A stretch of 64,000 bases of DNA from contig OZ024742.1 of the NCBI GenBank assembly GCA_964016885.1, positions 36,084,001 to 36,148,000 of the forward strand, read 5' to 3'. The position numbers and the translations under genes were made by a program. Each line of letters starts with the position of its first letter. The first letter of the stretch is position 1. A model generated the notes under the pieces. It was not told the origin of the DNA, did not search any database, and worked only from the letters and a program-made list of their open reading frames with translations. Positions 3,470 to 53,728 of the stretch are shown piece after piece. This stretch comes from Eledone cirrhosa (taxonomy: Eukaryota).

Positions 3470-3645
3470 CTTTTTTTGGCACAAGGCCAACAATTACCCC
3501 CAGTGCATTACTGGTGCTATATTTTATCGACCCCGTAAGGATGAAAGACAAAGTTAACCTCGGCGGGATTTGAACTCAGATCATAAATGGCCGTAACTCT
3601 ATGATGCAAAGCATGGCGTCCGACCCTCTACCGATATTGCCAAAA
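3470..3645 (-). mobile_element. tRNA-derived SINE (family S1)
   Basis: Reverse complement carries B-box GAGTTCAAATCC and body CATCCTTACGGGGTCGATAAAAT, shared with copies at 12900, 15371, 49588, 50620 and 60505. Confidence 0.85.
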
Positions 3646-3906
3646 TGATAATATCGTTAGAAAAGCATATGGAACATAGAACACTCTGAAAAGACGAAGA
3701 CGTGGACAGTTCCTATCGTTGTTTTCCACTCCAGCGTCTGTCGTGGTTTTATCCAGAATAGCTATCTTCTTTTAGATACTATTGGAGCAATGGGAAAATA
3801 GTCTTGTCGTTAAAGTGTCCTAAACTATGATGAATCCCAGAAATCAATCGATGAGCGAGAACTATCCATGTGTCCTTTTTTTCCCAAGTTTTCGATGTCT
3901 TTTTAA

Positions 3907-4256
<350 letters not shown>

Positions 4257-4638
4257 ATATATATATATACTAAATTATGTTTTAAAAACCAGCAATCAAA
4301 CATTAACTAATACACATGAGCTGAGTGCAAGATTTGTTGAAGAGAAAAGTAATAGTAACTTCGAAGTTTTAGCTATTGCTTCAGCTAATACACAGATGGA
4401 ATCTTCCCTGATACCAAAGATGATAACAGTAAAAGGTTTATTTATTTTCTGTTTATATCCATTGCAGCACCAAAATATTTTAGTTGCCAAAATCAAGATC
4501 ACCTAAACAAACATGATACATTCACTGTTTTCATCATTTTATCGCATAATCAGCTTCTCTCTATTGTCTGGCTTCAGGTATTGGATGATAGCCCAAGTTA
4601 TTGTGCAGTAGTAGACTTCTTAACTTGTCTTCCAATTC

Positions 4639-6691: not shown

Positions 6692-8697
6692 ATGGAAATT
6701 TTCGACCTTGAAACGGTAAACAACGTTCAGGTCAAAAGTTTAAAGGCAGCCACTGCAGATTTCACCACGACTACGACGGCTATAGTCATGCCTGTCATCC
6801 ACTCTACTTAATGTGAAGGCAAAACTCAAAAGCTACCGTCACAACCTTCTGTGATAGCAGCAGTATCATCTGAAAACGACAGCACCACCACCGCCACCAC
6901 CACCACCACAACAACAACTCAGAGCAATAACGACAATAACACCGACAGCTTCAATGTAAACAAGGATGGCGATGGCAACACCAATAACAACAGCAAGAAT
7001 GACAACAACAACAATAAGAGCATCAGAAACACCACATTTGCTGCAGCAGCAGCAAAAGCAAAGCGCTTATTGAATATTGATATTGATATTAGCGATAAAG
7101 ACGAACAGTTTGCCAAAGCGTGGAGGCTAATTAAACGGGAGAAGTCCTGGGCAAACCTGACCATCCCGGACGAGGCAATAGCGGCCATGCAAAGGAGGAC
7201 GGTGTTCTTTCGATGTATTTCGGTGCAGACACGAAAAGTGGAACTTGCGAGCCAAGCAGAGGTAGAGGCTGCTTTGGAGAACATCGGAAGTAACATAGAG
7301 TACAAAGCAAGAGGCAAACAGTTCGGTACCATCTCGGTACTGTTCAAAATCGAGGCCCTCGCTATTAAGCACTCGGTGACCCCTGCAGAACGGAACGCAT
7401 TATCATGCATCCGTCCTATATGGGTAAAAGGACAGTGAAGGTACGCATTCCCAGCATCCCACCAGGAATGAACATATGGTGGCTGCTGGGATGCGTAATC
7501 GAGGAGGGGACAGACACTACCCTCCTGGACATCAAAAGGACAGAGAGAGAGGACTGGTCCGGAATGGATTTGGAGATTCTTCTCCAAATGAAACCGGAGG
7601 ATATGAATAACATCCCGGATTTTGCCCGCCTGCAGGACGGGACAACAATCCAACTAATGATTGACGGAAGAAGGCCACGCTGCTTCGTCTGCGGGGAAGC
7701 AACGCATTTTCAAGCCTTCTGCCCTCAGCGCAAAAATGCAGGGGGTCGCAAACCTCCTTTGTTGCCAACACCAGTGTCAGCACGGAAAGCTGCACCACCA
7801 CCACCACCAAAAACAACATCAACAAAAACACGGACACCAACATCAAAAGCAGCCGGATCACCACCAACACCAAAACCAATCCAAGGAGAAAACGAGGAAA
7901 GCTCTCCCACTCCCCCTACCCCCCCCCCCCAATTATACACATAGACAAAACAATAAACGCACACACAGACACAGAGACACTCACAGACACAGACTCTTTG
8001 TCTTCCAGCAGCGAAGATGAAGGAAAACCCAAAAGTGCAAAAAAACAGAGAAATCTCACAAAAAAAAAAAGCCCCAACAAAACACAAAAACACACACAAC
8101 AAAAAATACAGACACCACTAACGCAAACACTTCCCCAATAACATCATCACCAACAACAACATCGACAATCCTCCACAATCCTCGAAACGCAAACAACCTA
8201 AACAAACACAAGTACAAATAAACACACAAATACATGAAATTGCAGACACCACACCTACAACAAACATAGACATACCCGAAACAACAGCACCAAAACCATC
8301 GCCACCACCTTCACCAAAACGAAAACAAATAAAACCACACCAACAAAATGTTAAAAACTTCGTGCTTGTCAGAAGGGCCAACGATAAACTGATGGCCCTC
8401 TTAGCGCGAAGCGAGGACATTCAAACAGAGGGGGAGATTTTTGAAATGAGCACATTTTGCGTGCCAGAAGATTTGCTTCTGGTCCGAATGTCACTCAATT
8501 CTTTCAAAGAAATTCGAGAGAGCTTTCCTCAAGACGTGGGAACCCCGTATCTGAAACCCACATCAAGACTTTTAAAGGGATTCCCAAAAGAAACCCCACC
8601 AACCATGGAGGTCGAACCACCCGACCTTCACAAGACCCGAGAGGTAAGTAAACCTTCCCCCTCTCTCTCTCTTAGCTTACCAATATGGTCATATTAA
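6692..8697 (+). pseudogene. Tx1-like ORF1 (gag-like, zinc knuckle), frameshifted
   Basis: RPRCFVCGEATHFQAFCP (CX2CX4HX4C) in ORF 7405..7944, with a low-complexity Pro/Thr/Lys tail. Boundaries are approximate. Confidence 0.75.
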
Positions 8698-11600
8698 GAG
8701 TAGGAAGTTTAAATGTTCGCGGCCTGGGGTCACCCTGGAAGCAGGGTCGCCTGCTCAACGACCTCCGGTCGCTGGAAATGGATGTGATTGCTGTAAGCGA
8801 GACCAGAATTTCCAACACGCGCGCACTAGCCCCCATTTTCGACGACTATCAGATCTTCGCATCTGTTAGCAGGCCGGGAATGGGGGGTGGGGTGGCAGTG
8901 CTGTTTAGGAAAGGACTGGATCTCAAGGTAAGGTCGATCTTCCGGGACCGGGACGGTAAGTTGGTGGTCTTGGATGTGAGCAGTAGCGAAGGTGGTGCCT
9001 TTAGACTGCTGGCCGTCTACGCCCCTACAGGGGCCGGACGACCTTACTTCTTTAGGCGCCTGGAGACCTTTCTGGGTACGTCTCGCCCTTTACTGTTAAC
9101 GGGGGACTGGAATGGCATCTTAGACGCACGCTGGGATTGTGTGGGAGTAGCCGATAGGAGCGGGGGGTGCAAAAGCCTCAAGCACCTACTCAGCCAGTTC
9201 CAACTGTCTGACAGGTATCGACTAGATTTCCCCAATGTGCCAGTATGGATATGGACCAACCGAATGGGGTCATCTAGATCGTATATAGACAGGATCTTCA
9301 TTAGGAAAATAGATAGAAATAGTGTGGGCTGTCCACTTTTTAAAACGGTCGCCTATTCAGATCACAAATTTGTGATCTGTACGGTCGACCTAAATAAAAC
9401 GCGTAGGTTAGGACCGGGTTACTGGAAGCTGAACATGTCATTTCCGGCACGTAAGGCTTACAGGGACCGAGTCAACAATTTAGTTAAGCAAAAGTTGACA
9501 GGGGGGATCATCAACAACAGATGATGAGTGGCTCTCAAAAGAGAGATTAGAGTAACTTCGATAGAGTTCAGCAAAGAACTAGCGCTAGAGAAAAATAGAA
9601 AGGAGGGGGAGCTGGTAGATAAGTTAGACGAGGCTATTTGTAGTGGCATCGCAACTGACGTGCTAGCGGCGAGAATGGCATTAGACCATTTCTTCAATGC
9701 CAAACACGAAGGTTGCATTGTCAGAGCTAAGGCGCGTGCGCTGAGAAACGAGGGAAGTAAAGCTGTTCGATGGGCCCGCGTGGCGGAGGCGCAGCGTGGT
9801 AATAAAACCACAATTCGGTCTTTGGCGGACCGAGACGGACACGAGATAAGCGATTCCAAGCGGATCTGTGAGGCCTTTCGCCAGCACTTTGCTCGGTTGT
9901 TCAGAGAGAGTGGCGAGTCAGAGAGAGTAGCGGATTTCAGTCCCTACCTTGACGGCCTGCCGCGCATCTCGACGGTCGACGCTGAGCGCTGCGAAAGGCC
10001 AATTACTTCAGCCGAAATTCAGGACGCCCTTGTCGGCTGCACGAGGCGCAAGTCACTCGGTTTGGATGGCCTGCCCTACGAGCTTTACGTAAATATGCCA
10101 GACTTGTTCTCCGAACTCCTCGAAGCACTCTACTGCAACTGGCAGCAGAATGGGAGTATCCCCAGTTCTGTGAGCATGGGAGTGGTGACGCTGATAGGAA
10201 AGACGAGAACAAGAGGGATACATTAGACAACTTCAGGCCCATAACTTTGCTCAACACAGAGTTTAAGATTTTAGCCAAGGTATTAGCAAAGAGATTGGCG
10301 CTTGTCGTCGAGGATTTGGTTGGGGAGGCGCAAACTTGCGCAATACCAGCCAGGTTCAGACACGACAATCTCCACCTCATGCGATACATCATAGAGAGGG
10401 TAGGGTGTAAACCTGGCTTAGGTGAGGCACTGATCAATTTAGATCAATCGAAAGCATTCGATAGGGTCGACCATCGGTATCTGGAGTTTGTCCTCAAAGC
10501 AGCTGGCTTCGGCCCTGTCTTTAGAAGCTGGATCGTTGCAATGCACAGCGACACATGCTCGGTGATCAAGGTTAATGGCCACCTCTCGGAACCATTTCGG
10601 CTCTCCCGATCGGTCCGTCAAGAGTGCCCTCTCTCTTCCCTTCTGTACGTATTGACTCTCGAGCCTTTCCTGCGGAAGCTGGAGCTGTTGCAGGGCATCC
10701 CGCTGAACCGGGACGTGGAAAGGCGGTGTCGGCTTATGCGGACGACATCACCGTGATGGTGTCGAACACCTCAGAAATCGAGGTGGTCGGCACCTTATTG
10801 AAGGAATATGAAAGGTTGACAGGAGCCAAACTTAACCCGGAAAAGTCGGTGGGCTTGCAGCTCGGAACCTGGAGAGGCAAGCCCATGCCGTCCAACAGCG
10901 TCGTGGGGTGCTGGACGGAAGGACCGGTAAAGTTGCTCGGGGTTTGGTTCGGACCAGACCTCCAGGTGGAAAAGAATTGGGACGAGGTAACGAGCAGAGT
11001 AGCCAGTCTCACCCAAAAATGGGCTGGGAGGAAGCTATCACTGAAAGGTCGCGCGGAGGTGGCGAATGCGTACATCGCGTCCGTCATCTACTACTGCCTG
11101 ACCGTCGTGCCTTGCCCCCGTCCGCGCCTCGTCAAGCTGGAACGGCTCCTCTTCAAATTCTTGTGGAGGGGACAAGTTCCGTTGGTGAGGCAGTCCATCT
11201 GCTGCCAGCACCCTCTACGTGGAGGGCTGGGCATTCCGTGGCTAATGATGCGCAGACATGCGTTGAGGCTGCGACATCTCCAGATATTCTGCCTCAACGG
11301 TGAACAGGTGTGGTCGCCGTTTATCAGACGGGCCTTTCCGCAGCTCATTTCTTTGACTGAGCTGCAGTCCTGGGTCAAGAAGAGACCGAGACTGGGTGAC
11401 TGGCACCTGGAATGTTGCCAGGCACTCACTGCCCTCTACCAAGCGGGCAATGCGATCAGTGGAACTTCCACTCTCGAGTTCTATAGAGGATTAGTGGTGG
11501 GAAAGTGCGATGACGCACTCGGAGAAGCTTTGGGCCTCGACGAAGTCGAACTGACCAGTCTGTACCGGAGGACTTTTGAGCCGATGGACAATTTCCAGAA

Positions 11601-12116
11601 ATCCCTCGCTTGGCAGTGCTACCGGGGGGGGGGGGGGCACTGCCGGTTCGGGATAAACTCTACAGGCACGGAAGTGCTGTCAGACGGACCTGCCCAAGAT
11701 GCGCACAGAACGACGAAACCGTTCTGCGCGCACTTGTCCAATGTCCGTGCACTACTGACTTGTGGAATTATGTCGAACAGCTACTGTCGCGTGTGGAACG
11801 AATCCGGCTATCGGCCGAGTCCATAGTGAAGATCGATCCACCGCCTTCCTAAGGTCAGGAAGAGCAGGAAATTTTCCTCTGTCTGGTGGCAGTTGCGAAA
11901 GAGATTATATGGTGGACCAGGTTGAAAGGACTAAAGACAGACACTTTTCTCTTCGGCCAATCCCTCATCAACTTCTTCAAGTTTCACCTGAAAAGGAAGG
12001 TGAGGGTGGAGAGAGAAGTGCTGCCCCCCCCCCCCCCCAGTACATTTGCTAAAAGGTGGGTGAATGTGGCGAGAATGGCTCGTGTGAATGGGCCTACTCT
12101 GACCATGCGCCTATAG
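8685..12116 (+). pseudogene. Tx1-like ORF2 (APE endonuclease + reverse transcriptase + C-terminal Cys motif), broken by stops and frameshifts
   Basis: SLNVRGL, SET, GDWN, YIDRIF, SDHK (APE); GPGYWKLN; GLDGLPYE, NLDQSKAFDRVDH, VRQECPLS, AYADDIT (RT); GGLG; CPRC. Confidence 0.92.
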
Positions 12117-18927: not shown

Positions 18928-19119
18928 GGAAAATGTATGACCCCGACGGCAGAGCTCAAGCCGTTTCGACGGCTATTTCTGGACTGAGAAATAGCCGTCG
19001 AAACGGCTTGAGCTCTGCCGTCGGGGTCATACTTTTTCCTATTTCCTACTCTACTACCCTAAGTATTGAGTACTCTGGTGCGTTATGGTCCATCTGGTTC
19101 CTTACCACAATTCCTTTGT

Positions 19120-19120: not shown

Positions 19121-19153
<33 letters not shown>

Positions 19154-19485
19154 CATAAGTTGAAAAAAATGAAAACGAAATTTCATTTCTCACTCTTAGT
19201 ATGGCACTTACTTAAATGTAAGTATGTATGTATACGTACATACATATATGTATACAGACGTACAGTAGCATGCATACATATACATATATATATATATATA
19301 CATACATATACATATATATACATATATGCATACAGGTACACATACATATATGCACGCATCAGTTTAGCGGACGTTTATTACAACGCCGCTTTGTTCGTTT
19401 GTTTGTCAACAAACCGAACAGCCTGAATTTATGCCATACGGTGTTAAGGCAACCACGTCACCTTTTTGTTCAACACTGACACAGG

Positions 19486-19530
19486 AACGATGTACTAGTT
19501 TCAAGCTTGTTAGCTATCATCAGCACCGTT
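19486..19530 (-). ncRNA. Minimal type-I hammerhead ribozyme (retrozyme unit, inverted arm)
   Basis: Reverse complement of 20365-20409. Confidence 0.85.
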
Positions 19531-20364
19531 TACCCATCTGCCAGATAGTTGAACGTTCGAAAGTATATACTTTCCTTATGAAAATTAACGGCTGAGCAGC
19601 CTAATTTGCATATTGAGTGAGTTAAATCGGTCAGGCATACCGAAAACGATAAGTTGAAAAAAATGAAAACGAAATTTCATTTCTCACTCTTAGTATGGCA
19701 CTTACTTAAATGTAAGTATGTATGTATACGTACATACATATATGTATACAGACGTACAGTAGCATGCATACATATACATATATATATATATATACATACA
19801 TATACATATATATACATATATGCATACAGGTACACATACATATATGCACGCATCAGTTTAGCGGACGTTTATTACAACGCCGCTTTGTTCGTTTGTTTGT
19901 CAACAAACCGAACAGCCTGAATTTATGCCATAAATTTATGCCATAAATTTATGCCATAAATTTATGCCATAAATTCAGGCTGTTCGGTTTGTTGACAAAC
20001 AAACGAACAAAGCGGCGTTGTAATAAACGTCCGCTAAACTGATGCGTGCATATATGTATGTGTACCTGTATGCATATATGTATATATATGTATATGTATG
20101 TATATATATATATATATGTATATGTATGCATGCTACTGTACGTCTGTATACATATATGTATGTACGTATACATACATACTTACATTTAAGTAAGTGCCAT
20201 ACTAAGAGTGAGAAATGAAATTTCGTTTTCATTTTTTTCAACTTATCGTTTTCGGTATGCCTGACCGATTTAACTCACTCAATATGCAAATTAGGCTGCT
20301 CAGCCGTTAATTTTCATAAGGAAAGTATATACTTTCGAACGTTCAACTATCTGGCAGATGGGTA

Positions 20365-20409
20365 AACGGTGCTGATGATAGCTAACAAGCTTGAAACTAG
20401 TACATCGTT
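20365..20409 (+). ncRNA. Minimal type-I hammerhead ribozyme (retrozyme unit)
   Basis: AACGGTG-CTGATGA-T-AGCT-AACA-AGCT-T-GAAAC-TA-GTA-CATCGTT: 7-bp stem I, palindromic stem III ACTAGT, GUA triplet, predicted cut after 20402. Confidence 0.88.
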
Positions 20410-20858
20410 CCTGTGTCAGTGTTGAACAAAAAGGTGACGTGGTTGCCTTAACACCGTATGGCATAAATTCAGGCTGTTCGGTTTGTTGACAAACAAACGA
20501 ACAAAGCGGCGTTGTAATAAACGTCCGCTAAACTGATGCGTGCATATATGTATGTGTACCTGTATGCATATATGTATATATATGTATATGTATGTATATA
20601 TATATATATATGTATATGTATGCATGCTACTGTACGTCTGTATACATATATGTATGTACGTATACATACATACTTACATTTAAGTAAGTGCCATACTAAG
20701 AGTGAGAAATGAAATTTCGTTTTCATTTTTTTCAACTTATCGTTTTCGGTATGCCTGACCGATTTAACTCACTCAATATGCAAATTAGGCTGCTCAGCCG
20801 TTAATTTTCATAAGGAAAGTATATACTTTCGAACGTTCAACTATCTGGCAGATGGGTA

Positions 20859-20903
20859 AACGGTGCTGATGATAGCTAACAAGCTTGAAACTAGTACATC
20901 GTT
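20859..20903 (+). ncRNA. Minimal type-I hammerhead ribozyme (retrozyme unit)
   Basis: Identical to 20365-20409 and 494 nt downstream; predicted cut after 20896. Confidence 0.88.
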
Positions 20904-21233
20904 CCTGTGTCAGTGTTGAACAAAAAGGTGACGTGGTTGCCTTAACACCGTATGGCATAAATTCAGGCTGTTCGGTTTGTTGACAAACAAACGAACAAAG
21001 CGGCGTTGTAATAAACGTCCGCTAAACTGATGCGTGCATATATGTATGTGTACCTGTATGCATATATGTATATATATGTATATGTATGTATATATATATA
21101 TATATGTATATGTATGCATGCTACTGTACGTCTGTATACATATATGTATGTACGTATACATACATACTTATATTTATACATACATATATATATATATGCA
21201 TGTATACATTTTTTTAATATATGCATTGTATAC

Positions 21234-28040: not shown

Positions 28041-28076
28041 TCTTCTGATGAATGACTAGCGTCCGAAACGTTAAGA
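28041..28076 (+). ncRNA. Minimal hammerhead ribozyme (family A), one stem II mismatch
   Basis: TCTT-CTGATGA-A-TGAC-TAGC-GTCC-GAAAC-GTT-AAGA. Confidence 0.75.
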
Positions 28077-31467: not shown

Positions 31468-34400
31468 ATGTCTAATGATGAAATCTCATACCGGATCGGC
31501 CGTCACCCGGGTAAAAAAGGGCCGCGTCCCTCAGAGAGGAACCAGACTGGGGTCGAAAAATCAGCTAATGGTTCAAACCTTCCCATCACTTCGGAGCTGG
31601 AGACCTCCCATAACCGGAATACTCCTACTGTTGGCCCTCCATGCTCACCACCAAGAAATCCAAAGAAAAAGAGAGAAAAATGGTCAAGGGAAGATAATAA
31701 AGAAGTCCTTGAGGCTTTCTACACTGCCATGTACTACCCATCAAATACATCGAATACAGAGCAAACATATATCAACTGGAAAAAGAAACATCCCGAAAAC
31801 AGAGGCTATATTGACAGTAACAAACTAGCCAATATACGAAGAAATATTGTAAGAAAAAAGTTACTAACTGATATAGAAATTGATCAGATCAAGCTAGTAG
31901 CACAAAGTCAGCGAAGGGAAAATGAAGCATGTGTCAGTGAAAACGAGGTAAACTGTAACACTTCGAATCCCAGAGTTGGGGCGGAATCACTGGCAACAGA
32001 ACAAATTAAAGAAAGGAGCGAAAAAGTGGAGGGAGTGCATGCTCAGGATGAAACTCCAAATGAAAATAATGAGATCGTAAATGATAAAGAAATGAATGAG
32101 AATGAACTTGCCAACTTGAAGGATGAAATTATGATCGAATGGATGAAAATGAAAGAATCTGACATGGGGGAACGAGACACCCTCCCTAAGATCCAGAACT
32201 CCAAACAGAACCAAAAGATAATACACAAGACAAACATAATTCTCAAAAACATTATCATCACAAACAAACTAAGCATTACTGACTTAAATCATCTCTATTA
32301 TGCATCGGCTAAAGTCACCACTCACTTATGTGGAGTGAAGATGAAAAAACAAAGGAATTCCCACAAGAAATCTACTTGGCAAGATAACATCAATCGCCAA
32401 ATAAACCTTCTCCGATCTGACATAGAAATTTTAACAAACTATAAAGTAGGTGAACATGTTAAACAAACTAAACTTAGAAAATTGAAAAAAAAGTACAGTA
32501 TAAGATCAACATGTGACATAGACATGCTGATAGAAACAATCAAGCAAAAAGTGTCGGCCAAAGCTGCTCGTATAAGGCGCTTTGAAAAACGATCTAGATT
32601 CTATAAGGACAATAATATGTTCAAAAACAACCAAAGAAACTTCTACAGAAAAATTGGTAAGTCAACAATAACTGCTAAATCAATACCACCCAAGGAGGAA
32701 GTGCAAGAATTCTGGGAAAAGATCTGGGCCGAAGAAAAAGTTCATAACATACATGCCCCATGGATAGACAGACAAATGAAAGAAACAGCTCACCTTGAAG
32801 AACAAACATGGGAAAATATAACAGTTGAACAGCTGCGCTTGGCTCTAAGAAAAACCAGCAAATGGAAATCCCCAGGAAAAGACAAAATACAAAACTTTTG
32901 GATAAATGCCTTCACAGAGTCTCATGAGCTGTTAGCCCAACTTTACAATGAAATAGTTAAGGAGCCAGAAAAGATACCATCATGGCTAGTTAACGGCATT
33001 ACATTCCTGCTACCGAAGAATGATGAGACAAACAATCCCAAAAATTACAGACCGATAACCTGCTTGACCACAATGTATAAAATTTTAACATCAGTCCTAA
33101 CTGAATACACATATGACCACCTGATAACAAATGACCTATTTCCCATTGAGCAGAAAGGGTGTAAACGAGGCTCATATGGCTGTAAGGATCAGCTTCTGGT
33201 TAACAAAATGATACTGGAAGATTGTCATAATAGACACAAAAATCTATCGATTGCTTGGATAGATTATAAAAAAGCATTTGATAGTTTGCCACACAGTTGG
33301 ATTGAAAAATGTTTAGAGATTTTCAAAATATCCCCCGTTATCAGGAGGTTTTTGTCATTCAGTATGAGGACATGGAGAACGACACTCCTTTTGAATAGTG
33401 AAACAAAATCACTGGAAGCTGGAGAAGTTAACATTAATTGTGGAATTTTTCAGGGTGACGCTTTATCACCGCTTTTATTCTGCATCGCACTTATACCATT
33501 AAGTAAAATGCTCAATGAAACAAAACATGGATATAGAGTCTATGACAAAACCATTAATCACCTGTTCTACATGGATGACCTGAAACTATTTGCAAAAAAT
33601 GATGAACAATTGCAAGGGCTATTATCCACTGTGAAGCAGTTCAGTGATGACATTAAAATGGAGTTTGGACTGGATAAATGCGCCAAAGCAACGTTCACCA
33701 GAGGAAAGCTGCTGAAGAGTTCAGACATTAATCTTGATCGGGGGAACGTGATAAGAGAGCTTGATCAAGAACAAACTTACAAATATCTAGGTGTTTGTGA
33801 AGGAGACGGAATCAAGCACTCGACAATGAGGGAAAGGATAAGGAAGGAATGTTACCGCAGAGTCAGAGCAATCTTAAGAACGGAATTGAATGCAAGGAAT
33901 AGGATCGATGCCATAAACACGCTTGCCATACCAGTAGTAACCTACAGTTACAATGTCATCAACTGGTCAAGCACAGAGATCCGTAGGCTCGATACAAAAA
34001 TCCGAAAATTCTTAACCATGCACAGAATGCATCACCCTAAGGCAGACATAGATAGAATATATCTCCATAGGAAAGAAGGAGGACGTGGGTTAATCCAGTT
34101 AGACATTGCGTTGAAAACTGCAACAATTGGATTATCCACATATCTAAGGGAATCACATGATTGGATGATCAAACTCGTTTTGAAACACGAAAGCACCAAA
34201 AGATCATATTCCATTACAAAAGATGCACAAAGATACAGTAATGGACTACAAATTTCAGAAGTCCCATTTACTGCTGAAATGGAAAACACAGAAAAAGCAA
34301 AGCAGGTAAAAGTAACTGTAAAGAAAGAACTGCTACAGAAACTGGCTAAGAAATGGCAAGAAAAGCCTCTGTATGGAAAATACCCAGAGCGAGCTAACAA

Positions 34401-35118
34401 TCCTGATGTTGACAAAACTTTAACCCATCAGTGGTTGGCATCCTCTGGACTGAAATCGGAGACTGAAGGACTGATTATATCCGCACAAGATCAGTGTCTG
34501 CCAACAAAAAATTACCAAGCCAACATAATAAAAAATGGGTGCAGCCCATTATGCCGTGTATGCAAAAAACAACCAGAGACCATTGACCATATAATTTCAA
34601 TGTGCAGTCCTATAGCTCCAACCGAATACCTAAACAGGCATGACAGAGCTGCACAATACATACATTGGATAATGTGCAAGCATTTTGACCTGCCCCATCA
34701 AAAGAATTGGTGGGAGCATCAACCACCTCCCATACTTGAAAAAGATCACATCTCAATCTTGTGGAACTTTAGCATCCAAACAGACCGAAAAATAGATGCA
34801 AATAGACCTGATATAATATTGAAGGACTTTCAAAGGAGGGTATGCCTGCTAATTGATATGTCTGTTCCAATAGACAAGAATGTATCTATAAAAACATTTG
34901 AAAAATTGAGCAAGTATAAGGACCTGGAGATAGAAATTGGAAAAATGTGGAAATTGAGAACTAAAACAATACCAGTGGTTGTAGGCGCTCTGGGAATGAT
35001 ACCTAAGGGGTCTAACGACTACTTATCGCAAATCCCAGGAAACCCGCGTATAGGAGAAATACAAAAGATAGTACTAATGGGAACTGCCCATATACTAAGG
35101 AAGATCCTGTCAATATAA
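31468..35118 (+). CDS. Intact R4/Dong-type non-LTR retrotransposon ORF (RT + CCHC + restriction-like endonuclease), element 1
   Basis: 1216 aa open. WKSPGKD, YRPITCL, WIDYKKAFDS, GIFQGDALSPLLF, YMDDLKL, GGRGL, CRVC..ETIDHIISMC, RHD, NRPDII, KLSKY. Ends in (TAA)n at 35259-35305. Confidence 0.95.
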   Translation: MSNDEISYRIGRHPGKKGPRPSERNQTGVEKSANGSNLPITSELETSHNRNTPTVGPPCSPPRNPKKKREKWSREDNKEVLEAFYTAMYYPSNTSNTEQTYINWKKKHPENRGYIDSNKLANIRRNIVRKKLLTDIEIDQIKLVAQSQRRENEACVSENEVNCNTSNPRVGAESLATEQIKERSEKVEGVHAQDETPNENNEIVNDKEMNENELANLKDEIMIEWMKMKESDMGERDTLPKIQNSKQNQKIIHKTNIILKNIIITNKLSITDLNHLYYASAKVTTHLCGVKMKKQRNSHKKSTWQDNINRQINLLRSDIEILTNYKVGEHVKQTKLRKLKKKYSIRSTCDIDMLIETIKQKVSAKAARIRRFEKRSRFYKDNNMFKNNQRNFYRKIGKSTITAKSIPPKEEVQEFWEKIWAEEKVHNIHAPWIDRQMKETAHLEEQTWENITVEQLRLALRKTSKWKSPGKDKIQNFWINAFTESHELLAQLYNEIVKEPEKIPSWLVNGITFLLPKNDETNNPKNYRPITCLTTMYKILTSVLTEYTYDHLITNDLFPIEQKGCKRGSYGCKDQLLVNKMILEDCHNRHKNLSIAWIDYKKAFDSLPHSWIEKCLEIFKISPVIRRFLSFSMRTWRTTLLLNSETKSLEAGEVNINCGIFQGDALSPLLFCIALIPLSKMLNETKHGYRVYDKTINHLFYMDDLKLFAKNDEQLQGLLSTVKQFSDDIKMEFGLDKCAKATFTRGKLLKSSDINLDRGNVIRELDQEQTYKYLGVCEGDGIKHSTMRERIRKECYRRVRAILRTELNARNRIDAINTLAIPVVTYSYNVINWSSTEIRRLDTKIRKFLTMHRMHHPKADIDRIYLHRKEGGRGLIQLDIALKTATIGLSTYLRESHDWMIKLVLKHESTKRSYSITKDAQRYSNGLQISEVPFTAEMENTEKAKQVKVTVKKELLQKLAKKWQEKPLYGKYPERANNPDVDKTLTHQWLASSGLKSETEGLIISAQDQCLPTKNYQANIIKNGCSPLCRVCKKQPETIDHIISMCSPIAPTEYLNRHDRAAQYIHWIMCKHFDLPHQKNWWEHQPPPILEKDHISILWNFSIQTDRKIDANRPDIILKDFQRRVCLLIDMSVPIDKNVSIKTFEKLSKYKDLEIEIGKMWKLRTKTIPVVVGALGMIPKGSNDYLSQIPGNPRIGEIQKIVLMGTAHILRKILSI

Positions 35119-35258
35119 GTACATCACAAGTCTAAACACTAAGGATGCATGTGTGAATATGTGTGTTCTTTCTTGAACATGGCGGACCTTGTTGTCTCTT
35201 GAGGTCACTGGTTGTGACTTGGTGATAACTCGTATAAACATAAAGCAAGATAAATGCA

Positions 35259-35306
<48 letters not shown>

Positions 35307-35583
35307 TTTTCCCGTAAATTCTGTGCAGTTATTCTTTCCCGAGACAAAAACTAAGTCAGACATTCGAATACTACATTACAATGAAACTTATGCTTATTCA
35401 TTTTTGGGGCCCTTTATGCCCGTGTGTTTGTTTGTTTATGTGTGTTCGTATACAGCGTGGTGATAATGCCACACAAGGGCCAAGTGGGATGGCGGATCCA
35501 CAGATGGCTATGTAAACATACATTCGCCAATCCTCGATAAGAGTGTTTAAATATCGAACATAAACAGTTCGAATAACGGTGAA

Positions 35584-38500
35584 ATGGAGACTAGAACGTC
35601 ATGTGACAGACTCTCACCCAACAGGTGCCCCCTGGCTCAGCAGCAGGAACCTGACTGTCAACCAAATACTGCTGATGTTGGAGGAAGAAGAAGAAGGAAA
35701 GGGGCCAGAACCAACTGGACGAAAGAATTGAATAGAACTGTTATGCAATGCTACCTGAAAAGTAACCCCAAGGAGAGGGGCTACAGGAGACGGATGCATA
35801 ACATCTGGAACGAGATTGGTTTATTTAAATTAGATGAACAAAAATTGGCCGAGCAGGCTCGGGTAATAAGAGCTAATGGGTGGATAAGCGAGCTGGAACT
35901 GGAGGAACTGAGCAGAGAGAATGGCTTGGAGATGGCGGGTGTAGTATGCCAGACAAGCGAGCCGGTGGGAAATGAAGGTGAGGAGGTCCTGAGAACGGAG
36001 GAACCACCCGAAGCAGACAATGATCTGAATACTGAGATAAATAATACCTGGAACAGAGATACGGCCACTGAGGAGATGAATGCTGACGGGCTAGGACAAG
36101 ATTCGGTTGACATCCTAAATCTAGTGGTAGATGAATTGAACAATGATAGTGGGAGACCTATGAACCTTAGATTTGTAGACAGGAAAAAGTTAAAAGAAAC
36201 AACAGCTAAGGTAAACAAAGTCATCCCATACCTTGAGGCGAGGAGTCTTCACCAGTGCAACAATATCCTCAAAGCAACAGCAAATACGGTGAGGAAACTA
36301 CTTGGTATAAAAGCGAGAGGAAACAACAGACAAGAAAGAGCAGAGCCGTGGTGGAAGAAGCGACTGAGTGGGCAAATCGGGGAAATGAGAAATGACATAG
36401 GAAAGCTTGAGTCACTACTGAATGGGACACTAAAAAACATAGGCACTAAAAATAGACTGGAAATAAAATACAAAACTAGGAGTAAAAAGCTAAATATTAT
36501 CATAGAGGAATTGAAGCAACGCATTGTAGCAAAGAGTGCCAAAATCAGGCGATACGAGAACAGAGTCAGTCAGTATAAACAGAACCGCATGTTCGACAAC
36601 AACCAGAAGATGCTGTTTGGACAGCTTGAGGGGAAAGAAAGAGGCAACGACTTGATCCCTGGGGCGGAACAAGCTAAAACATTCTGGAGAGGAATATGGG
36701 AGCAGGATGTTAGACACAATGCCCAGGCAGGGTGGATTGAGACAGTACAGAGGGAGATCGGTGAGAAGGCACAACAACAGACTGATTTGAGTATCACAGT
36801 TGAAACTCTTAAGGGGCAAGCCAAAAAACTAACCAACTGGAAATCACCAGGCCCAGATGGTGTGCAGGGGTATTGGATTAAACATTTAACATCCCTCCAC
36901 CCGAAGCTGACGGCCATGTTCAATGACTGCTTGGTGTCGGGTGAGGTGCCAGAGTGGTTGACAAAAGGTACCACAGTTCTGATAATGAAAGACCGAATCA
37001 AGGGTAATGATGTTACCAACTATAGACCTATCACATGTCTGCCCGTAATGTGGAAACTGTTGACGAGCATTGTGTCTGAGGAAATCTGCCATCACCTCCA
37101 CACAAACAACTTGTTACCGGACGAACAGAAAGGATGCCGAAAGAAGTCACGTGGTACAAAGGACCAGTTGCTTATTGATAAGATGGTAATGGGGAATTGC
37201 AGGAGGAGACACACTGATCTTGCCATGGGATGGATAGACTACAGAAAGGCATTTGACATGGTGCCTCATTCCTGGATCACCAAAAGCCTGGAGGTCTTCA
37301 GGGTGGCGGATAACATCAGACAGTTGCTGGGCAGGAGTATGGGGTCCTGGGAGACAGAGTTGACATCAACTGGAGTATCCTTGGGAAGCGTGAAGATCAA
37401 GAGAGGTATCTTCCAGGGAGATAGCCTGTCCCCTCTGTTGTTTGTCCTTGCCCTGATGCCCTTGACCATTATGCTGCGAAAAGTGAGAGCAGGATACAAG
37501 TTGGGAAGGGGAGAGCTTACCATCAATCACCTCCTCTTCATGGACGATCTTAAGCTCTTCGGGAAAAGTGAGAAGGAGTTGGATGTGCTTGTTGACACTG
37601 TCCGTATTTTCAGCAGTGATATATGTATGCAGTTTGGTATTGGTAAATGTGGAGTCATTGTGATGAAGAGGGGTAGGTTGAGCAGAAGTAACGGGATCCA
37701 TATACCAACAGGTGAGATGATAAAGGAAATTGACTCTGAGGAAGGATACAAGTATTTGGGCGTTCTGGAGGCTGATGGCATAAAGAACAAAAAAATGAAG
37801 GAATTGTTAAGAACTGAATACATTCGGAGAGTAAGGAGCGTATTGAAGTCACATCTGAACAGCAGAAATGCCATAAGCGCAGTAAATTCCCGAGCTGTGT
37901 CTATTATTAGGTACAGTGCTGGAATTCTGAGATGGAATGTTGCTGAACAAAAAGAAATGGATAGGAAGACTAGGAAGCTATTGACTATCTACAACATGTT
38001 CCACAAGAGGAGTGATGTCGATAGACTCTACCTAAGGAGATCTGAGGGTGGAAGAGGTCTTATCAGCATAGAGGACTGTGTTCAGATGGAGAAAAACAAC
38101 CTATACAAATACGTGACCTATAGTAAGGAGCCAATGCTCAGAACTGTACTGAAGGAGGGGACAGTAGGCCAGGGGATGTCCAAGGAGGAAATAACATCAA
38201 GGAGGAAGAGCAGCCTTAAGGGAAAATCCCTTCATAGTACCTTCTTTGAGAAAACTGAATTTAGAGATCCACAGACATGGAACTGGTTGAGAAGAGGAGA
38301 CCTCAAAAAGGCTACAGAAGGAATGCTAATGGCTGCGCAGGAGCAGGCCCTCAAAACGAAGTGGTTGAAGCACCATATCTACAAGGAGGAGGCTAGCCCA
38401 CTGTGCAGGATCTGTGGAGAGAGAGAGGAGACTGTGGCTCACATTGTGTCCGAGTGTAAACACCTAGCCCAGACCCACTATAAGGGCTGGAGACACGATG

Positions 38501-38976
38501 TGATGGGCAGGGTGATCCACTGGCACCTGTGCAAAGTAAACAATCTACCACATTCTGAGAAATGGTATGAGCATAGGCCAGAGGCGGTGATGGAGAACAG
38601 TCAGGTGAAGGTGCTGTGGGATTTTAGGATACAGACGGACAAAAAACTGGAACACAATAGACCTGACCTGGTGGTTATGGACAAAGAAAAAAGATCGTGC
38701 CTGATTGTGGATGTGGCCTGCCCGTTCGACACGAGAGTGCAAGAGAAGGAGAGGGAGAAAATTAACCGATACCAGGACCTAAAGTGGGAGGTGAAAAGGA
38801 TTTGGAACTGCCATGAAGTCAAAGTGATCCCGATTGTCATAGGCGCACTGGGGACTATCTCCAAAGGTTTCCAGGGATGGTTAAAGAAAATCGGCCCCTT
38901 CACGCTTTTTGGAACGCTTCAAAAGGCATGCTTGCTTGGAACAGCAAGAACCCTCCGATACGTCCTGAATATCTGA
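35584..38976 (+). CDS. Intact R4/Dong-type non-LTR retrotransposon ORF, element 2 (distinct family)
   Basis: 1130 aa open. WKSPGPDG, YRPITCL, GIFQGDSLSPLLF, FMDDLKL, CRIC..ETVAHIVSEC, RHD, NRPDLVV, KINRY. (TAA)n tail to 39092. Confidence 0.95.
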   Translation: METRTSCDRLSPNRCPLAQQQEPDCQPNTADVGGRRRRKGARTNWTKELNRTVMQCYLKSNPKERGYRRRMHNIWNEIGLFKLDEQKLAEQARVIRANGWISELELEELSRENGLEMAGVVCQTSEPVGNEGEEVLRTEEPPEADNDLNTEINNTWNRDTATEEMNADGLGQDSVDILNLVVDELNNDSGRPMNLRFVDRKKLKETTAKVNKVIPYLEARSLHQCNNILKATANTVRKLLGIKARGNNRQERAEPWWKKRLSGQIGEMRNDIGKLESLLNGTLKNIGTKNRLEIKYKTRSKKLNIIIEELKQRIVAKSAKIRRYENRVSQYKQNRMFDNNQKMLFGQLEGKERGNDLIPGAEQAKTFWRGIWEQDVRHNAQAGWIETVQREIGEKAQQQTDLSITVETLKGQAKKLTNWKSPGPDGVQGYWIKHLTSLHPKLTAMFNDCLVSGEVPEWLTKGTTVLIMKDRIKGNDVTNYRPITCLPVMWKLLTSIVSEEICHHLHTNNLLPDEQKGCRKKSRGTKDQLLIDKMVMGNCRRRHTDLAMGWIDYRKAFDMVPHSWITKSLEVFRVADNIRQLLGRSMGSWETELTSTGVSLGSVKIKRGIFQGDSLSPLLFVLALMPLTIMLRKVRAGYKLGRGELTINHLLFMDDLKLFGKSEKELDVLVDTVRIFSSDICMQFGIGKCGVIVMKRGRLSRSNGIHIPTGEMIKEIDSEEGYKYLGVLEADGIKNKKMKELLRTEYIRRVRSVLKSHLNSRNAISAVNSRAVSIIRYSAGILRWNVAEQKEMDRKTRKLLTIYNMFHKRSDVDRLYLRRSEGGRGLISIEDCVQMEKNNLYKYVTYSKEPMLRTVLKEGTVGQGMSKEEITSRRKSSLKGKSLHSTFFEKTEFRDPQTWNWLRRGDLKKATEGMLMAAQEQALKTKWLKHHIYKEEASPLCRICGEREETVAHIVSECKHLAQTHYKGWRHDVMGRVIHWHLCKVNNLPHSEKWYEHRPEAVMENSQVKVLWDFRIQTDKKLEHNRPDLVVMDKEKRSCLIVDVACPFDTRVQEKEREKINRYQDLKWEVKRIWNCHEVKVIPIVIGALGTISKGFQGWLKKIGPFTLFGTLQKACLLGTARTLRYVLNI

Positions 38977-39062
38977 GGCTGCAGGTAGTGGCTTGATATT
39001 CAATCCAACGGACTTTCCAGTTAACCAACATCAATGACTGAGATTCAAGGAATAACAATAAC

Positions 39063-44183
<5,121 letters not shown>

Positions 44184-44449
44184 AAGAAAACGCGCTTTTT
44201 TTTAAATATAAACTCTTTAAAACAAACCGTTTTGTATCGAAGGATCAGGCGTTGTCTCAAGTGGTATCAAAAGGGTTAATACAATTCAATTCTTGTATTA
44301 CTATCTGGTATATAGAATTAAAAAATGAGACGAAAGAGGAGTTGAAAATAAACGACAAAAATAGGTGAGTAGGAATAATCAGACAAATGTCAGCATTATC
44401 ATTACATGTTCTTGGCAAAGTATCAGCTAGGTGTGGATGGTACGTCACT

Positions 44450-44520: not shown

Positions 44521-44874
44521 TAACATTACTGTGACATATCCTTTGTAAACATCAGATAGATATTACATCGTAGTCTCAGCGGACGAAAATACGAATACGT
44601 TATTCCAGAGGATAATGAGGTAGAAATTTGTAGTTTATAGCTTATAGTTCATAGGAAGCATTGTGATATATATGGATGTTATTGTTTTGAGAAAGCCGGT
44701 ACAATGGAAATTTGAAATATAAGAGTGAAAACTAGAGTGTATGTATATATATTACATATATAAATACATACATATATCTATATATATATATTAAGATAAG
44801 CAGAACAAGTAAAATTCAACCAATTTTTCAAAATAAATTAAAAAATATAATATAAATATTTACCTCTTCTAATG

Positions 44875-44955
44875 GCCCTTACTGATCAGTTTCGCTTTGT
44901 AAAACCCCAGAATCCAATGGATATCTGATGGAAAACCAAAGCTCATCAGAGAAGC
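44875..44955 (-). ncRNA. Hammerhead ribozyme (family D) in an inverted terminal repeat (44790-45235) upstream of the Penelope ORF
   Basis: TTCT-CTGATGA-GCTTTG...CAAAGC-GAAAC-TGATCA-GTA-AGGG, with palindromic stem III ACTGATCAGT and GUA triplet. Confidence 0.85.
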
Positions 44956-46278
44956 ATTTTCCTTTCCTAGGGCTAAACGACCCAGGAACGATAAAATATA
45001 TGATCTTCTGCCAGCTAATACAGGTCTGAAAGGTCGTAAAAGTGACCCGTATGTAAACCGGACCGAAGTAAAAGCGGGAAACCATAGACTTACTGTCTAT
45101 AATTACTACCAAAAAAAAACGATCATCACATCGATCGTGCCTCAAGCTGGTCGCCAGAGAAACGATTGTAATATGTCTAATAAATTCCATTCGTCGCAGC
45201 ACTGATTCTCTTTTTTCCAGTGATATCATACTCTGGTCTATGAGAGCATCGAGTGCTCATACAGCCTACCTCAAAGACACCTTAGGGAAAGAATGGCATT
45301 GGAAAAAATGAAGACAGAAATTGAACTTCTTAAATTGAGGGCTCAGACAAATGAGGAAAAAATCAAAACCATCGATGAAGAGATCCTCCTGGAAATCAAC
45401 AATAAAACTGAAGGCCCCAAGGTAGAGAAGATCTCCAAATTATGGAAAGGGGACTGCAACAGAGAAGAACTGAAATCCCTTCAACGCTGGGAAAAAAGTG
45501 CCGCTTGGTTCCTACACTATGAATCGACTTTTCAAACGGATTACACCTCCAATAACCCGTTCATAAAAATAGGAAAACCCATAACTGAACCGCACAACAA
45601 CTTCGCAAACCCCCAAGCCACTAACAAACGAAGAAGGAAGCACCACACCGAAGATGAACTTCCCAACCTCGCTACCATAAGAAGGAACAAAAACCCTAGA
45701 AATCATCTCCTCCAGAATGACATTTACAACTTTCCCTTCAAGGAGACACCATACCAAATCACTCAACTACTACGCGGATGCCTCATCGTCAAACATAGGG
45801 AAAAGATACCACCACCATGATAGATGTAACAACTTCCCCGCTTCAAGGGGACAGCAAGGTAATTTCCATTTTCTCAACTCTCGCTTCCACAATACACAAC
45901 AAACCCACACCACACGATACAACCAACAACGTAGGCCACCTATAACACCACAACCCAACATGGCACATAGAAACACACACCCATACTCGCAGTACAGGAA
46001 CACCCCATTCAATCTACAACCACCAACCCGAACCACATTTTACAACAACAAGGAATATAACAAACACAGGAGACCACTTAACATCAGCAGACAACCCCTC
46101 TACCCCAACCATTTTTTAGACACAGCACACAGATACAGGCAAACAAAATAACACAAGACAGGGAGGAGAAACCGATAGTAATAAAAATTATCAATCTAAC
46201 TAGTGCAGAACCAACACCCAACCTTATCAACTTACTCTCCAAAGGTTTTAAATTCACACCGACCCCTACTACTATGAA

Positions 46279-48426
46279 ATGAAGGAAGACATCACAGACT
46301 TCTGTAGAAAGTTACGACTCAGTGAAAAACTATTCGACCAGTACAATGAGGATGAATCATTAGCCAGAAATAGAAGCAATTACACCCCATCAAAAGGTAG
46401 AAATAAAATCCTGGCCGAATTCTGTGAACACATCACAGACTTCCCTTACCAACACTTGCACAGACAAAAACACAAGCCAAACCTCAACAAGAAAGAATGG
46501 GAAGAATTAAATAGATTAAAAACCGACAGAACCATTACAATTAAAGAGGCTGATAAAGAGAGTACAGTAGTCCTAATGGAGACAGAATTCTATATCAACT
46601 TAGCGCTCTCCACTTTGGAAAACGAAACATACTACGAAAAGGCTGAACACTACAATCAACAGAAAATTATGAGAAACCTAAAAACTCTGATCAACCAATA
46701 CAAAGAAGGACTCACTAACAAGGAATTCAGCTTCATCACAGACTTCACAAGTAAATCCAGCTTTTTCTACGGTATCCCTAAAGTACATAAAAGCGAATTA
46801 ATAAGTAAGGCATGCAAGGAAGCCACAGATATAGTCATCAATGTCCCCTCACGCAATGATCTCAAATTAAGACCTATAATAGCAGGCCCCGCTTGCGAAA
46901 CCCACCGCCTTAGCAACTTCATTGATACCCTTCTCAAGCCTTTTCTCAAACACATCAAAAGCTATATAAGGGACGACCTAGATATGCTCAATCACCTCCC
47001 TAATATGCCCCTTTCTGAACAAACCCTACTAGTGACGTTCGATGTAGTCAACCTATACTCCAACATCCCCCACAACCTAGGAATAGAAGCTATCCAATTC
47101 TGGCTGGATAATTACCACAATGAACTCCCACAACGCATCAAAAAAGAATTCGTGATAGAGGGACTCAAAATTACCTTGGAGAACAATTACTTCGTTTTCA
47201 ATAACAAACCCTACAGGCAGAAATCTGGGACCGCTATGGGAACAAAAACAGCCCCCACTTATGCCAATCTAGTCATGGGATACCTGGAAATCACCCTCTA
47301 CACTAAAGTCCTAAACAAATTTGGAAACACTCTCCACTTACACATAGAAAGGAACTGGAAGCGATATCTAGATGACTGCTTCATCCTTTGGCACGAAAAC
47401 ATCGAAAAACTTAAAGAATTTCACACCCTTATAAATGGGCTCAACAAGAATATTAACTTCACGATGGAATACAGCAATAAACAACTCCCCTTCCTCGACA
47501 TCCTCATTAAGATCCATAACAAAAAAATAGAAACAGACATATACTACAAGCCCACAGACTCCAAGCAATATCTTCCTTTCAACTCTTGCCACCCTAGACA
47601 CGTTAAAATTAATATTCCCTACAACTTAGCCAAGAGAATCTGTACTATAGTCTCCAATAAAAACACCTGCTGCTTACGGCTACAAGAAATAAAGGACACA
47701 CTCATAGGCAGGGACTACCCTGCATCACTAATTGACAATGGAATCCAACGTGCCCTAAAACTCAGTACCCAGGACCTTAGACACCCTAAAGTAAATCAAC
47801 CGAAACTAAAAGCTCTTCCATACATCTCCACACACAACACCCTCAACAATGAGGCCTTTGACACCATCCTCCAGAACATCCCTGTGTTGAAAAAGGACCA
47901 TAGAATGAACCAAATCCTACGAACACACGATATCATAAAGAGCAAAAGACAATCTAAGTCAATGAAAAACATCATAACACACGCCAAAGTACTGCCAACC
48001 ACAACAACGAAACCCACAGTAAAAAAATTCGATAGACCCAACTGTGGCATATGCATCAACCTAATAGAGGGTTCGGAATTCTATTTCAAAGAAGGACAAC
48101 GTTTTATAGTACAAGACAATTTCACATGCGCATCAGAAAATCTAATATATGTATTAACTTGCTCAGGTTGTCGAGAACAATACATAGGCCAGACCCAAAA
48201 CAGCCTCCACCAACGCATGACTGTCCATAGATCCCAAATTAAAATACGGGAATACAGGAAAATACCACTGAGTGAACACATTGATACCTGTGCCGCTCAA
48301 AATCATCCCAACTTCAGAATCTTTCCCCTCTACAAATGTAAAGATAATGCCACCCACACCCAGCGCATCAGCAAGGAATCTTACTTTATTAACAAATACG
48401 GACCCCGTCTAAACACTTCTCCCTAA
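46279..48426 (+). CDS. Penelope-like reverse transcriptase + GIY-YIG endonuclease
   Basis: IKEADK, FYGIPKVHK, LRPII, FDVVNLYSNI, YRQKSGTAMG, RYLDDCF, LPFLD, YYKPTD, SCHP; RPNCGIC linker; NLIYVLTCSGCREQYIGQT...RMTVH...E.YFI...LN. Confidence 0.93.
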   Translation: MKEDITDFCRKLRLSEKLFDQYNEDESLARNRSNYTPSKGRNKILAEFCEHITDFPYQHLHRQKHKPNLNKKEWEELNRLKTDRTITIKEADKESTVVLMETEFYINLALSTLENETYYEKAEHYNQQKIMRNLKTLINQYKEGLTNKEFSFITDFTSKSSFFYGIPKVHKSELISKACKEATDIVINVPSRNDLKLRPIIAGPACETHRLSNFIDTLLKPFLKHIKSYIRDDLDMLNHLPNMPLSEQTLLVTFDVVNLYSNIPHNLGIEAIQFWLDNYHNELPQRIKKEFVIEGLKITLENNYFVFNNKPYRQKSGTAMGTKTAPTYANLVMGYLEITLYTKVLNKFGNTLHLHIERNWKRYLDDCFILWHENIEKLKEFHTLINGLNKNINFTMEYSNKQLPFLDILIKIHNKKIETDIYYKPTDSKQYLPFNSCHPRHVKINIPYNLAKRICTIVSNKNTCCLRLQEIKDTLIGRDYPASLIDNGIQRALKLSTQDLRHPKVNQPKLKALPYISTHNTLNNEAFDTILQNIPVLKKDHRMNQILRTHDIIKSKRQSKSMKNIITHAKVLPTTTTKPTVKKFDRPNCGICINLIEGSEFYFKEGQRFIVQDNFTCASENLIYVLTCSGCREQYIGQTQNSLHQRMTVHRSQIKIREYRKIPLSEHIDTCAAQNHPNFRIFPLYKCKDNATHTQRISKESYFINKYGPRLNTSP

Positions 48427-49587: not shown

Positions 49588-49774
49588 GGGCGGTGGATTG
49601 GCAGTATTGGTAGAGGGTCGGACGCCATGCTTTGACGTATAGAGTTACGGCCCTTGCCTTTCTGAGTTCAAATCCCGCCAAGGTTAACTTTGCCTTTCAT
49701 CCTTACGGGGTCGATAAAATAAAGTACCAGTAATGCACTGGATAATTGCTGGCCTTGTGCCTAACGTAGAAACA
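49588..49774 (+). mobile_element. Full-length S1 SINE with 11-bp target-site duplication
   Basis: ACTATTACTAA at 49577-49587 and 49775-49785. It interrupts the family F repeat, which is uninterrupted at about 25740. Confidence 0.92.
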
Positions 49775-49853
49775 ACTATTACTAATTCTCACTTATTCCT
49801 AATTAAACTATTTTTCACTGTGAACAATTTGTCAGCATTTTCTTTTCCGTTTA

Positions 49854-49908
<55 letters not shown>

Positions 49909-50619: not shown

Positions 50620-50800
50620 TGGATTGGCAATATCGATAGAGGGTCGGACGCCATGCTTTGCACCATAGAGTTACGGCCCTTTATGATCTGAGCTTAAATC
50701 CCGCCGAAGTAAACTTTGCCTTTCATCCTTATGGGTCGATAAAATAAAGTACCAGTAATACACTGCGTAATTGCTGGCCTTGTGTCAAAAGTAGAAACAA
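50620..50800 (+). mobile_element. S1 SINE, followed by a second S1 head (50821-50900)
   Basis: Same head and body as 49588 and 60505. Confidence 0.88.
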
Positions 50801-50899
50801 TTATTATTATTATTATTATTATTGGCAGTATCGGTAGAGCGTCGGGCACCATGCTTCGTGACATAGAGTTGCGTCCCTTTGCGTTCTTAGTTCAAATCC

Positions 50900-52905: not shown

Positions 52906-53728
<823 letters not shown>

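Follow-up and report, generated by a model that had tools for sequence, protein, structure and literature searches.

This locus raises the question of what a 494-bp non-coding repeat that carries a hammerhead ribozyme (HHR) is, and by which machinery it is copied into the genome. The repeat occupies 19155-21176 of the window (the whole 64,000-nucleotide stretch of DNA that was analysed), and sequence self-comparison verified its period of 494 bp, the sole period-494 mismatch in 19963-20676 being at 19967. The unit has a GC content of ~33% and contains no credible open reading frame (ORF; among ATG frames the longest, which is antisense, has 85 aa), and an LTR layout was not found in it. The preliminary description of this DNA had placed cuts after 20402 and 20896 that would release an exact monomer (20403-20896), and the motif positions confirm these predicted cuts. 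It had also presented 19155-21170 as one tandem with a complete HHR in each unit. The period and the HHR motif stand, but the stretch consists of two head-to-head arms, a plus arm (19963-21176) in which the 494-bp periodic match stops near 21170 and an inverted minus arm (19155-19932) that is the reverse complement of the plus-arm start, and it holds three HHRs across ~four unit lengths, one of them on the minus strand (19523-19493). Neither the head-to-head inversion nor the very high copy number of the repeat had been part of that description. The features are as follows (PLE, Penelope-like element; RT, reverse transcriptase):

19144-19157, no strand: probable target-site duplication, left copy, 14 bp, in an interrupted (TA)n; the same 14-mer is at 21169-21182
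19155-19932, minus: minus arm, 778 bp, 1.6 units, with outer end B (with tail) at 19155; 100% identity to the unit, end B found family-wide
19155-19212, minus: PLE-type tail, unit 281-338, ~58-64 nt between the putative RT start sites; at exactly one outer end in 30/30 classifiable pairs
19486-19530, minus: type I hammerhead of the minus arm, predicted cut between 19493/19492 (motif scans)
19920-19975, no strand: junction of the head-to-head arms, made of a 13-bp near-palindrome repeated four times (TRF period 13, 4.3 copies; inverted axis)
19963-21176, plus: plus arm, 2.4 units, with outer end A (no tail) at ~21170-21176 (self-comparison; family end census)
20341-20427, plus: HHR 1 with extended stem I, core 20372-20402, predicted cut after 20402 (fold z -2.8; covarying stem I pairs)
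20403-20896, plus: sole complete cut-to-cut monomer, a predicted linear or circular RNA of 494 nt (motif positions; circular MFE -173.7 kcal/mol)
20456-20696, plus: predicted domain in which a long-range helix (20456-20463/20689-20696) encloses two hairpins, a TA-rich rod and the end-A hairpin (two compensatory helix pairs, 26 units)
20672-20689, plus: small hairpin with end A (unit ~274-280) in its loop region, putative start site 1 (end census; predicted fold)
20700-20774, plus: predicted tail domain, helix 20700-20706/20768-20774, with end B (20740) as putative start site 2 (A-U/G-C covariation)
20835-20921, plus: HHR 2 with extended stem I, core 20866-20896, predicted cut after 20896 (motif scans)
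21169-21182, no strand: probable target-site duplication, right copy, matching 19144-19157
52910-53603, plus: older copy of a ~430-nt subfamily, 75-87% identical to the unit, HHR core 53297-53327; it stops at B and has a short inverted arm (52910-52970)

The 14-mer of the probable target duplication occurs 11 times in ~1.0 Mb of other loci. The junction between the arms (19920-19975) was probably the annealing site of two cDNAs, followed by slippage. A transcript entering from outside the locus would fold into a hairpin of 778 bp in which HHR 1 is masked; the exact monomer would therefore need a transcript starting inside the plus arm. A TATA-like palindromic 14-mer lies ~40 nt upstream of each plus-strand HHR (20322-20335 and 20816-20829); it is shorter in the 420-nt subfamily, is the junction point at one other locus (L044), and is a possible internal promoter element. 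Immediately left of the insert (18940-19040) there is a near-perfect inverted repeat with ~45-bp arms that derives from another repeat.

Each HHR is of type I: stem I is 7 bp long, stem III is palindromic, CUGAUGA, GAAA and a GUA triplet are present, and the 4-bp stem II begins with a U-U mismatch at 10.1-11.1 and not with G10.1-C11.1. The 31-nt core pattern has 24,001 exact matches in the 3.0-Gb assembly containing the window, versus 0 for the reversed control, so the match is not due to chance. The proposed search with hammerhead models did not recover it: Rfam gave 0 matches at gathering score in the 64-kb window and no hammerhead family among the 150 of 229 weak matches listed, and the miRNA matches in that scan were traced to the microsatellite and the junction palindrome. 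The assignment as a putative ribozyme is grounded in motif and covariation. By itself, the 66-nt HHR folds no better than shuffled sequences (z -0.35), in the MFE structure the HHR core is paired as an inactive prolongation of stem I, and fold prediction gives a cost of 5.4 kcal/mol for a monomeric stem III; from the palindromic stem III, self-cleavage is predicted to occur as a dimer. Extended stem I has ~24 predicted pairs, and among 190 HHR copies chosen by their core it alternates between G-U, U-G and A-U pairs, while systematic core variation in these same core-chosen copies is confined to position 7 and loop II. An unbiased case is provided by the copy at 53 kb, in which 29/31 core bases are kept versus 75-87% identity elsewhere. 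For comparison, 8/9 predicted Xenopus retrozymes are reported to have failed to cleave in vitro (bioRxiv 10.64898/2026.07.22.740005). The window also contains other type I HHR families at 55982 (+), 25005 (-), 56887 (+) and 56385 (-), with an 8-bp stem I, a long stem II and a palindromic stem III, those at 56385 and 56887 being head-to-head; further HHR-like motifs of different families were seen at 28045 (+), 290 (-), 50117 (+) and, by eye, ~44855-44957 (-).

Folding of the predicted circular monomer gave an MFE of -173.7 kcal/mol, with z -11.8 versus 40 shuffles and z -4.6 for the antisense strand. Two 420-430-nt units folded as circles with z -8 and the same layout; overall, the predicted circle is 67-71% paired with z -8 to -12, values that are inflated by the TA-rich rod. 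An alignment was made of 26 of 35 complete units, the nine omitted being mostly near-identical young copies and two with large indels, and RNAalifold called 117 pairs on it, 9 of them compensatory. When three core pairs were left out, 98.3% of cells were paired and 9/114 pairs were compensatory, versus 0-2 in slid controls. Changes on both sides were found in 63 cells, a number reached by 0/500 shuffles; 9 compensatory pairs were reached by 59/500 shuffles, and the further pair types (43) were below the shuffle mean. These changes represent few subfamily events, and the structure was derived from the same alignment. Three elements carry the compensation: stem I, a helix whose span is 230 nt, and a tail helix formed with sequence past end B, whose A-U/G-C pair is kept in 25/26 units (35/36 in alignment A2). 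Because the tail helix pairs with sequence beyond end B, the RNA would extend past the start site, indicating internal initiation; end A lies in a predicted hairpin loop. Wobble pairs hold on the HHR strand only, and several unit-length subfamilies carry compensatory changes of their own. These patterns point to RNA-level selection on the unit.

One copy (L213; 1 of 278 segments from 91 loci) carries 17 A-to-G versus 3 T-to-C sense-strand changes, which are clustered, and so looks like an edited RNA that was copied into DNA. This copy (3512-4586 of its locus) is head-to-head, with A-to-G changes common to both arms near the centre, outer parts that differ, which suggests two RNAs, and a second short copy at the junction. 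A family-wide excess of A-to-G changes (274 vs 175) was rejected as a sign of editing, since G-to-A changes are equally high and references are shared.

The locus is a young copy of a very large retrozyme, or non-autonomous PLE, family. A search with the 341-bp non-microsatellite part of the unit returned 675 candidates, and the 40 that were scored, on five contigs, were 100% identical. Genomic counts of 17-mers were 36,863 in the tail, 32,427 just past the cut, 28,847 just before the cut and 23,737 at 110 nt further upstream. Subfamilies have units of ~420, 430, 466-482 and 494 nt, and arrays reach 15 HHRs. A further 20 loci, most of them chosen because they had a tail but no HHR close by, proved to be short copies of the same element, and the family is also present in contigs of sequencing runs X1, X4 and X6 (organisms A and B), as a matter of presence only. 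At one locus (L133) the entire head-to-head insert, flanks included, is duplicated 2.6 kb away.

The ends of the copies indicate how they were made. A census covered the two copies in the window, 12 loci (14 stretches) chosen for their identity, and the 58 loci that were the first pattern matches on contig C1. The 103 arms of the C1 loci stopped at end A (40), at end B (41), doubtfully (3) or elsewhere (19), so that 81/103 stop at two sites, A (unit ~274-280) and B (unit 338), which are ~58-64 nt apart. The preliminary description had read the mid-unit ends of the array as the permuted ends left by rolling reverse transcription, a reading that these fixed sites overturn; fixed ends, which that description had itself listed among its grounds for refutation, point to internal initiation by a PLE at two sites and are not an argument against a retrozyme. 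At the 5' side, truncation was variable, with starts spread across all 17 landmarks and no pile-up at the HHR cut landmark (2/103 arms; the three nearest cases retain 3, 9 and 13 upstream bases).

Head-to-head pairs numbered 43 over all sets, 12 with an unclassed arm and 1 with a doubtful arm, and the 30 classifiable pairs were all A+B (30/30; binomial P ~1e-9, with two pairs belonging to the one duplicated locus). Tail-to-tail pairs were not seen among the loci of the census. By rough arm length, A exceeded B in 17 pairs and B exceeded A in 10, with 3 similar; neither arm is therefore merely a fold-back copy of the other. These lengths rule out a single folded-back cDNA as the usual source of such inversions, though one may account for the inner portion of L213. 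Both ends abut (TA)n. Informative target duplications of at least 9 nt were found in 7/30 pairs, versus 8.4% of mismatched pairs (permutation P 0.006), most pair flanks being pure TA and uninformative for this test.

This end structure matches that of PLEs. In PLE inserts it is common to find a 5'-truncated copy in inverted orientation, a tail of 30-40 bp on one side and a preference for (TA)n (PMC8557442), and those of rotifers show a head-to-head arrangement, palindromic junctions and 8-10 bp duplications (PMC3846280). The anole PLE protein, which is predicted to be a dimer, cut and extended both strands in vitro from two internal RNA starts whose interval equals the tail (PMC11167929). Since the fixed ends, the one-tail pairs and the (TA)n targets match this published pattern, PLE machinery likely copies the repeat. 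The earlier proposal of a young non-LTR retrozyme with a predicted dimer-type HHR, moved by PLEs, is supported, now on much stronger evidence than was first available.

Candidate sources of such machinery are present, as the genome holds young RT + GIY-YIG families with long stop-free ORFs, labelled Neptune-like on the strength of a cysteine motif before the nuclease. The first has a copy in the window at 46252-48426 (+), with a 3' end near 49860-49905, ~96% identity and many 784-aa open frames. Its copies (the window copy and L075-L104) have two (TA)n ends ~42 nt apart, one of each in 7/8 pairs, and the eighth pair is a tandem whose true outer end fits the rule; a descriptor scan of one copy gave no convincing type I HHR. 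For the PLE protein in the window, the named relatives belong to bivalve-symbiont assemblies. The second (L225-L254) has many identical copies, 775-aa open frames and ends ~65 nt apart, with one end of each kind in 4/5 pairs; its tail length is the best match to the tail of the unit, and its inner end has a weak, non-significant likeness to unit end B. At 78 PLE loci from a few families, no significant end sequence or structure common to the unit and the sampled PLEs was found (best P ~0.04, uncorrected and of low complexity). Comparison of the unit with the two Neptune-like families and 30 GIY-YIG loci by BLAST, covariance model and shuffled alignments returned only inserted unit copies or near-chance scores. 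One array that adjoins a PLE ORF (L038) was rejected as evidence of a partner, as (TA)n and another repeat intervene. Other elements in the window include two non-LTR RT ORFs (1216 and 1141 aa) at 31468-44188 (+), where three more 1670-bp tandem copies of the 3' part of the second ORF each have a terminal (AAT)n, a broken APE-RT LINE at 8676-11826 (+), an RT fragment at 50977-52314 (-), and short SINE-like repeat copies at 49588-49775 and 50620-50900, one of them within the PLE 3' region.

The reading that best accommodates these results, given a probability of about 0.65, is that a retrozyme-type repeat is copied into (TA)n by a Neptune-type PLE RT and GIY-YIG nuclease from two fixed internal start sites, probably on a circular RNA. 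The tandem would be transcribed, two HHRs would pair through their palindromic stem III and release the monomer, and a host ligase would close the circle. The PLE protein would then cleave both strands of (TA)n, leaving a short duplication. Taking the ends observed in the DNA as RT starts, one DNA end would be primed at site A, in the hairpin loop at unit 274-280, and the other at site B, at unit 338. In the DNA, copying is observed to continue past the HHR junction, in many cases beyond a full unit. Two antisense cDNAs would be joined head-to-head by short complementary stretches, and some arrays are later enlarged by local duplication.

The nature of the template was approached through the copies that cross the cut site. 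A cut linear monomer cannot supply copying through the HHR junction; as a template, it would lose unit 339-494, whereas the 17-mer counts drop by just ~11% across the cut (~10%, from 40.0k to 35.9k, when roughly corrected), and it is excluded. With ~90% of copies reading through the cut site, the template is either an uncut multimer or a circle closed by ligation. The units of the two arms usually have their locus-specific variants in common, and most differences within an array are singletons, as expected from one repeated template. At one locus (L142, contig C1 near 5.54 Mb), units 1 and 3 of a six-unit arm share a private change and microsatellite length, which is a local two-unit duplication, and at another (L041) microsatellite lengths are very unequal among units; array length is thus no proof of rolling.

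An unlikely though still serious rival is that the same PLE twin-primes on an uncut linear multimer, with a HHR that is weak or otherwise used and with long arrays arising from long transcripts and unequal exchange. HHR cleavage is reported to be dispensable for PLE insertion in vitro, with HHR mutants having no effect and no reads ending at the cut site (PMC11167929), and read-through of the cut is compatible with either template; the duplication in L142 and the single detected HHR in 66/103 arms are likewise in keeping with a linear multimer. Against this, the HHR core differs between subfamilies at two tolerated positions only while the remainder drifts 20-25%, a contrast that implies selection for catalysis; arrays holding as many as 15 near-identical units that differ mostly by singletons are in keeping with a single template copied repeatedly; and circles have been demonstrated for coral, mussel and axolotl retrozymes (PMC7229834). 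The circle is favoured over the linear multimer by about two to one.

An improbable alternative is that the unit is the pseudo-LTR (pLTR) of an unsampled autonomous PLE and that the loci are its 5'-truncated copies. Xenopus retrozymes are reported as sister to PLE pLTRs (bioRxiv 10.64898/2026.07.22.740005), the end structure is the same as in PLEs, and the PLEs sampled here are a few families out of 47,762 candidates at first look. In the loci tested, however, the sequence upstream of the HHR is again the tail of the previous unit and never an ORF, no PLE ORF is joined to the unit, and the compensatory changes proper to several unit-length subfamilies suggest that the unit evolves as its own replicon. 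Nor does the unit appear to be an autonomous PLE, as no RT + GIY-YIG ORF was found inside it or joined to it in these loci. Tandem arrays, internal microsatellites and inverted arms occur in DNA elements too, and the repeat has no Rfam match, but a DNA-level repeat (a satellite, or Helitron- or MITE-like) with an incidental hammerhead match and hairpins is hardly credible given the wobble pairs confined to the HHR strand, the sense-antisense difference in fold, the fixed 3' and variably truncated 5' ends, the copy that looks A-to-G edited, and the conserved core with covarying stems.

Within the preferred reading, copying of a retrozyme by a Neptune-type PLE, a more specific model is offered tentatively, with somewhat less than an even chance. 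A dimeric Neptune-type PLE protein would sit on a structured, two-site pad of the HHR-made circle and prime both (TA)n ends at once, both cDNAs would roll through the ligated ribozyme, and the one-tail rule would be the footprint of such twin-primed, rolling-circle reverse transcription; the 494-nt RNA would then be a minimal PLE substrate, recognised by its shape and not by shared sequence.

Non-LTR retrozymes with circles, dimer-type HHRs, a palindromic stem III and a U-U in stem II have been described (PMC7229834; PMC4209133), and retrozymes of 51-972 bp have been termed non-autonomous PLEs (Li et al. 2026, bioRxiv 10.64898/2026.07.22.740005); the unit, which had been called large for its class, falls within this range. 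A 2020 review reported no conserved motif in these repeats that reveals the mobilising retrotransposon (PMC7761336). The 494-bp family resembles the metazoan non-LTR retrozymes (Cervera and de la Pena 2020, PMC7229834; Li et al. 2026) in that its units are non-coding, tandemly repeated and each provided with one type I HHR, in its low GC and its predicted circle, which is self-paired, in occurring dispersed as anything from monomers to multimers alongside PLEs, and in size. It differs in its two fixed 3' ends, one-tail head-to-head arms and preference for (TA)n; neither main text mentions tails or inverted arms, and no paper on retrozyme end structure was found among those that a search of the open literature listed. 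Cleavage and circles have been demonstrated in metazoan non-LTR retrozymes, whereas for the 494-bp family both are predicted.

In the axolotl and newt satellite-2 family, HHR_Amex1 is alike in its one-pair stem III with a palindromic tetraloop, and is active as a dimer, and HHR_Amex2 is alike in the U-U at the base of stem II (PMC7229834); the 494-bp unit combines these features with a stem I of ~24 predicted pairs, in what appears to be an invertebrate host. MRC1 and further non-autonomous Chlamys PLEs of Chlamydomonas are likewise PLE derivatives with multicopy head-to-tail inserts, but their 3' end resembles that of their autonomous partner and the clade is described as lacking canonical HHRs (PMC8557442). 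The EN+ PLEs, Neptune and Poseidon (PMC8557442, PMC3846280, PMC11167929), share with the unit partial tandems, an inverted 5'-truncated arm, a single tail, AT-rich or (TA)n targets, ~10 bp duplications, and a HHR upstream of two internal RT starts. The unit differs from them in having no ORF, a tail of ~58-64 nt compared with 30-40, starts that lie 280 and 338 nt past the cut and not in an ORF, and no sequence in common with the autonomous families sampled.

The class, its size and its link to PLEs were thus already known, and what is added is genomic evidence of the mobilising machinery and of where copying starts. The PLE link has so far been argued from co-occurrence and pLTR phylogeny; the one-tail signature has now been counted (30/30), and the two putative RT start sites map to base resolution on a conserved RNA structure. 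Both the mobilising enzyme of animal retrozymes and the circular template can now be tested with an existing in vitro assay, and the unit offers a compact cis-element for PLE-based insertion. If the more specific model, a circle primed at two sites at once, is true, this family documents in DNA how animal retrozymes move.
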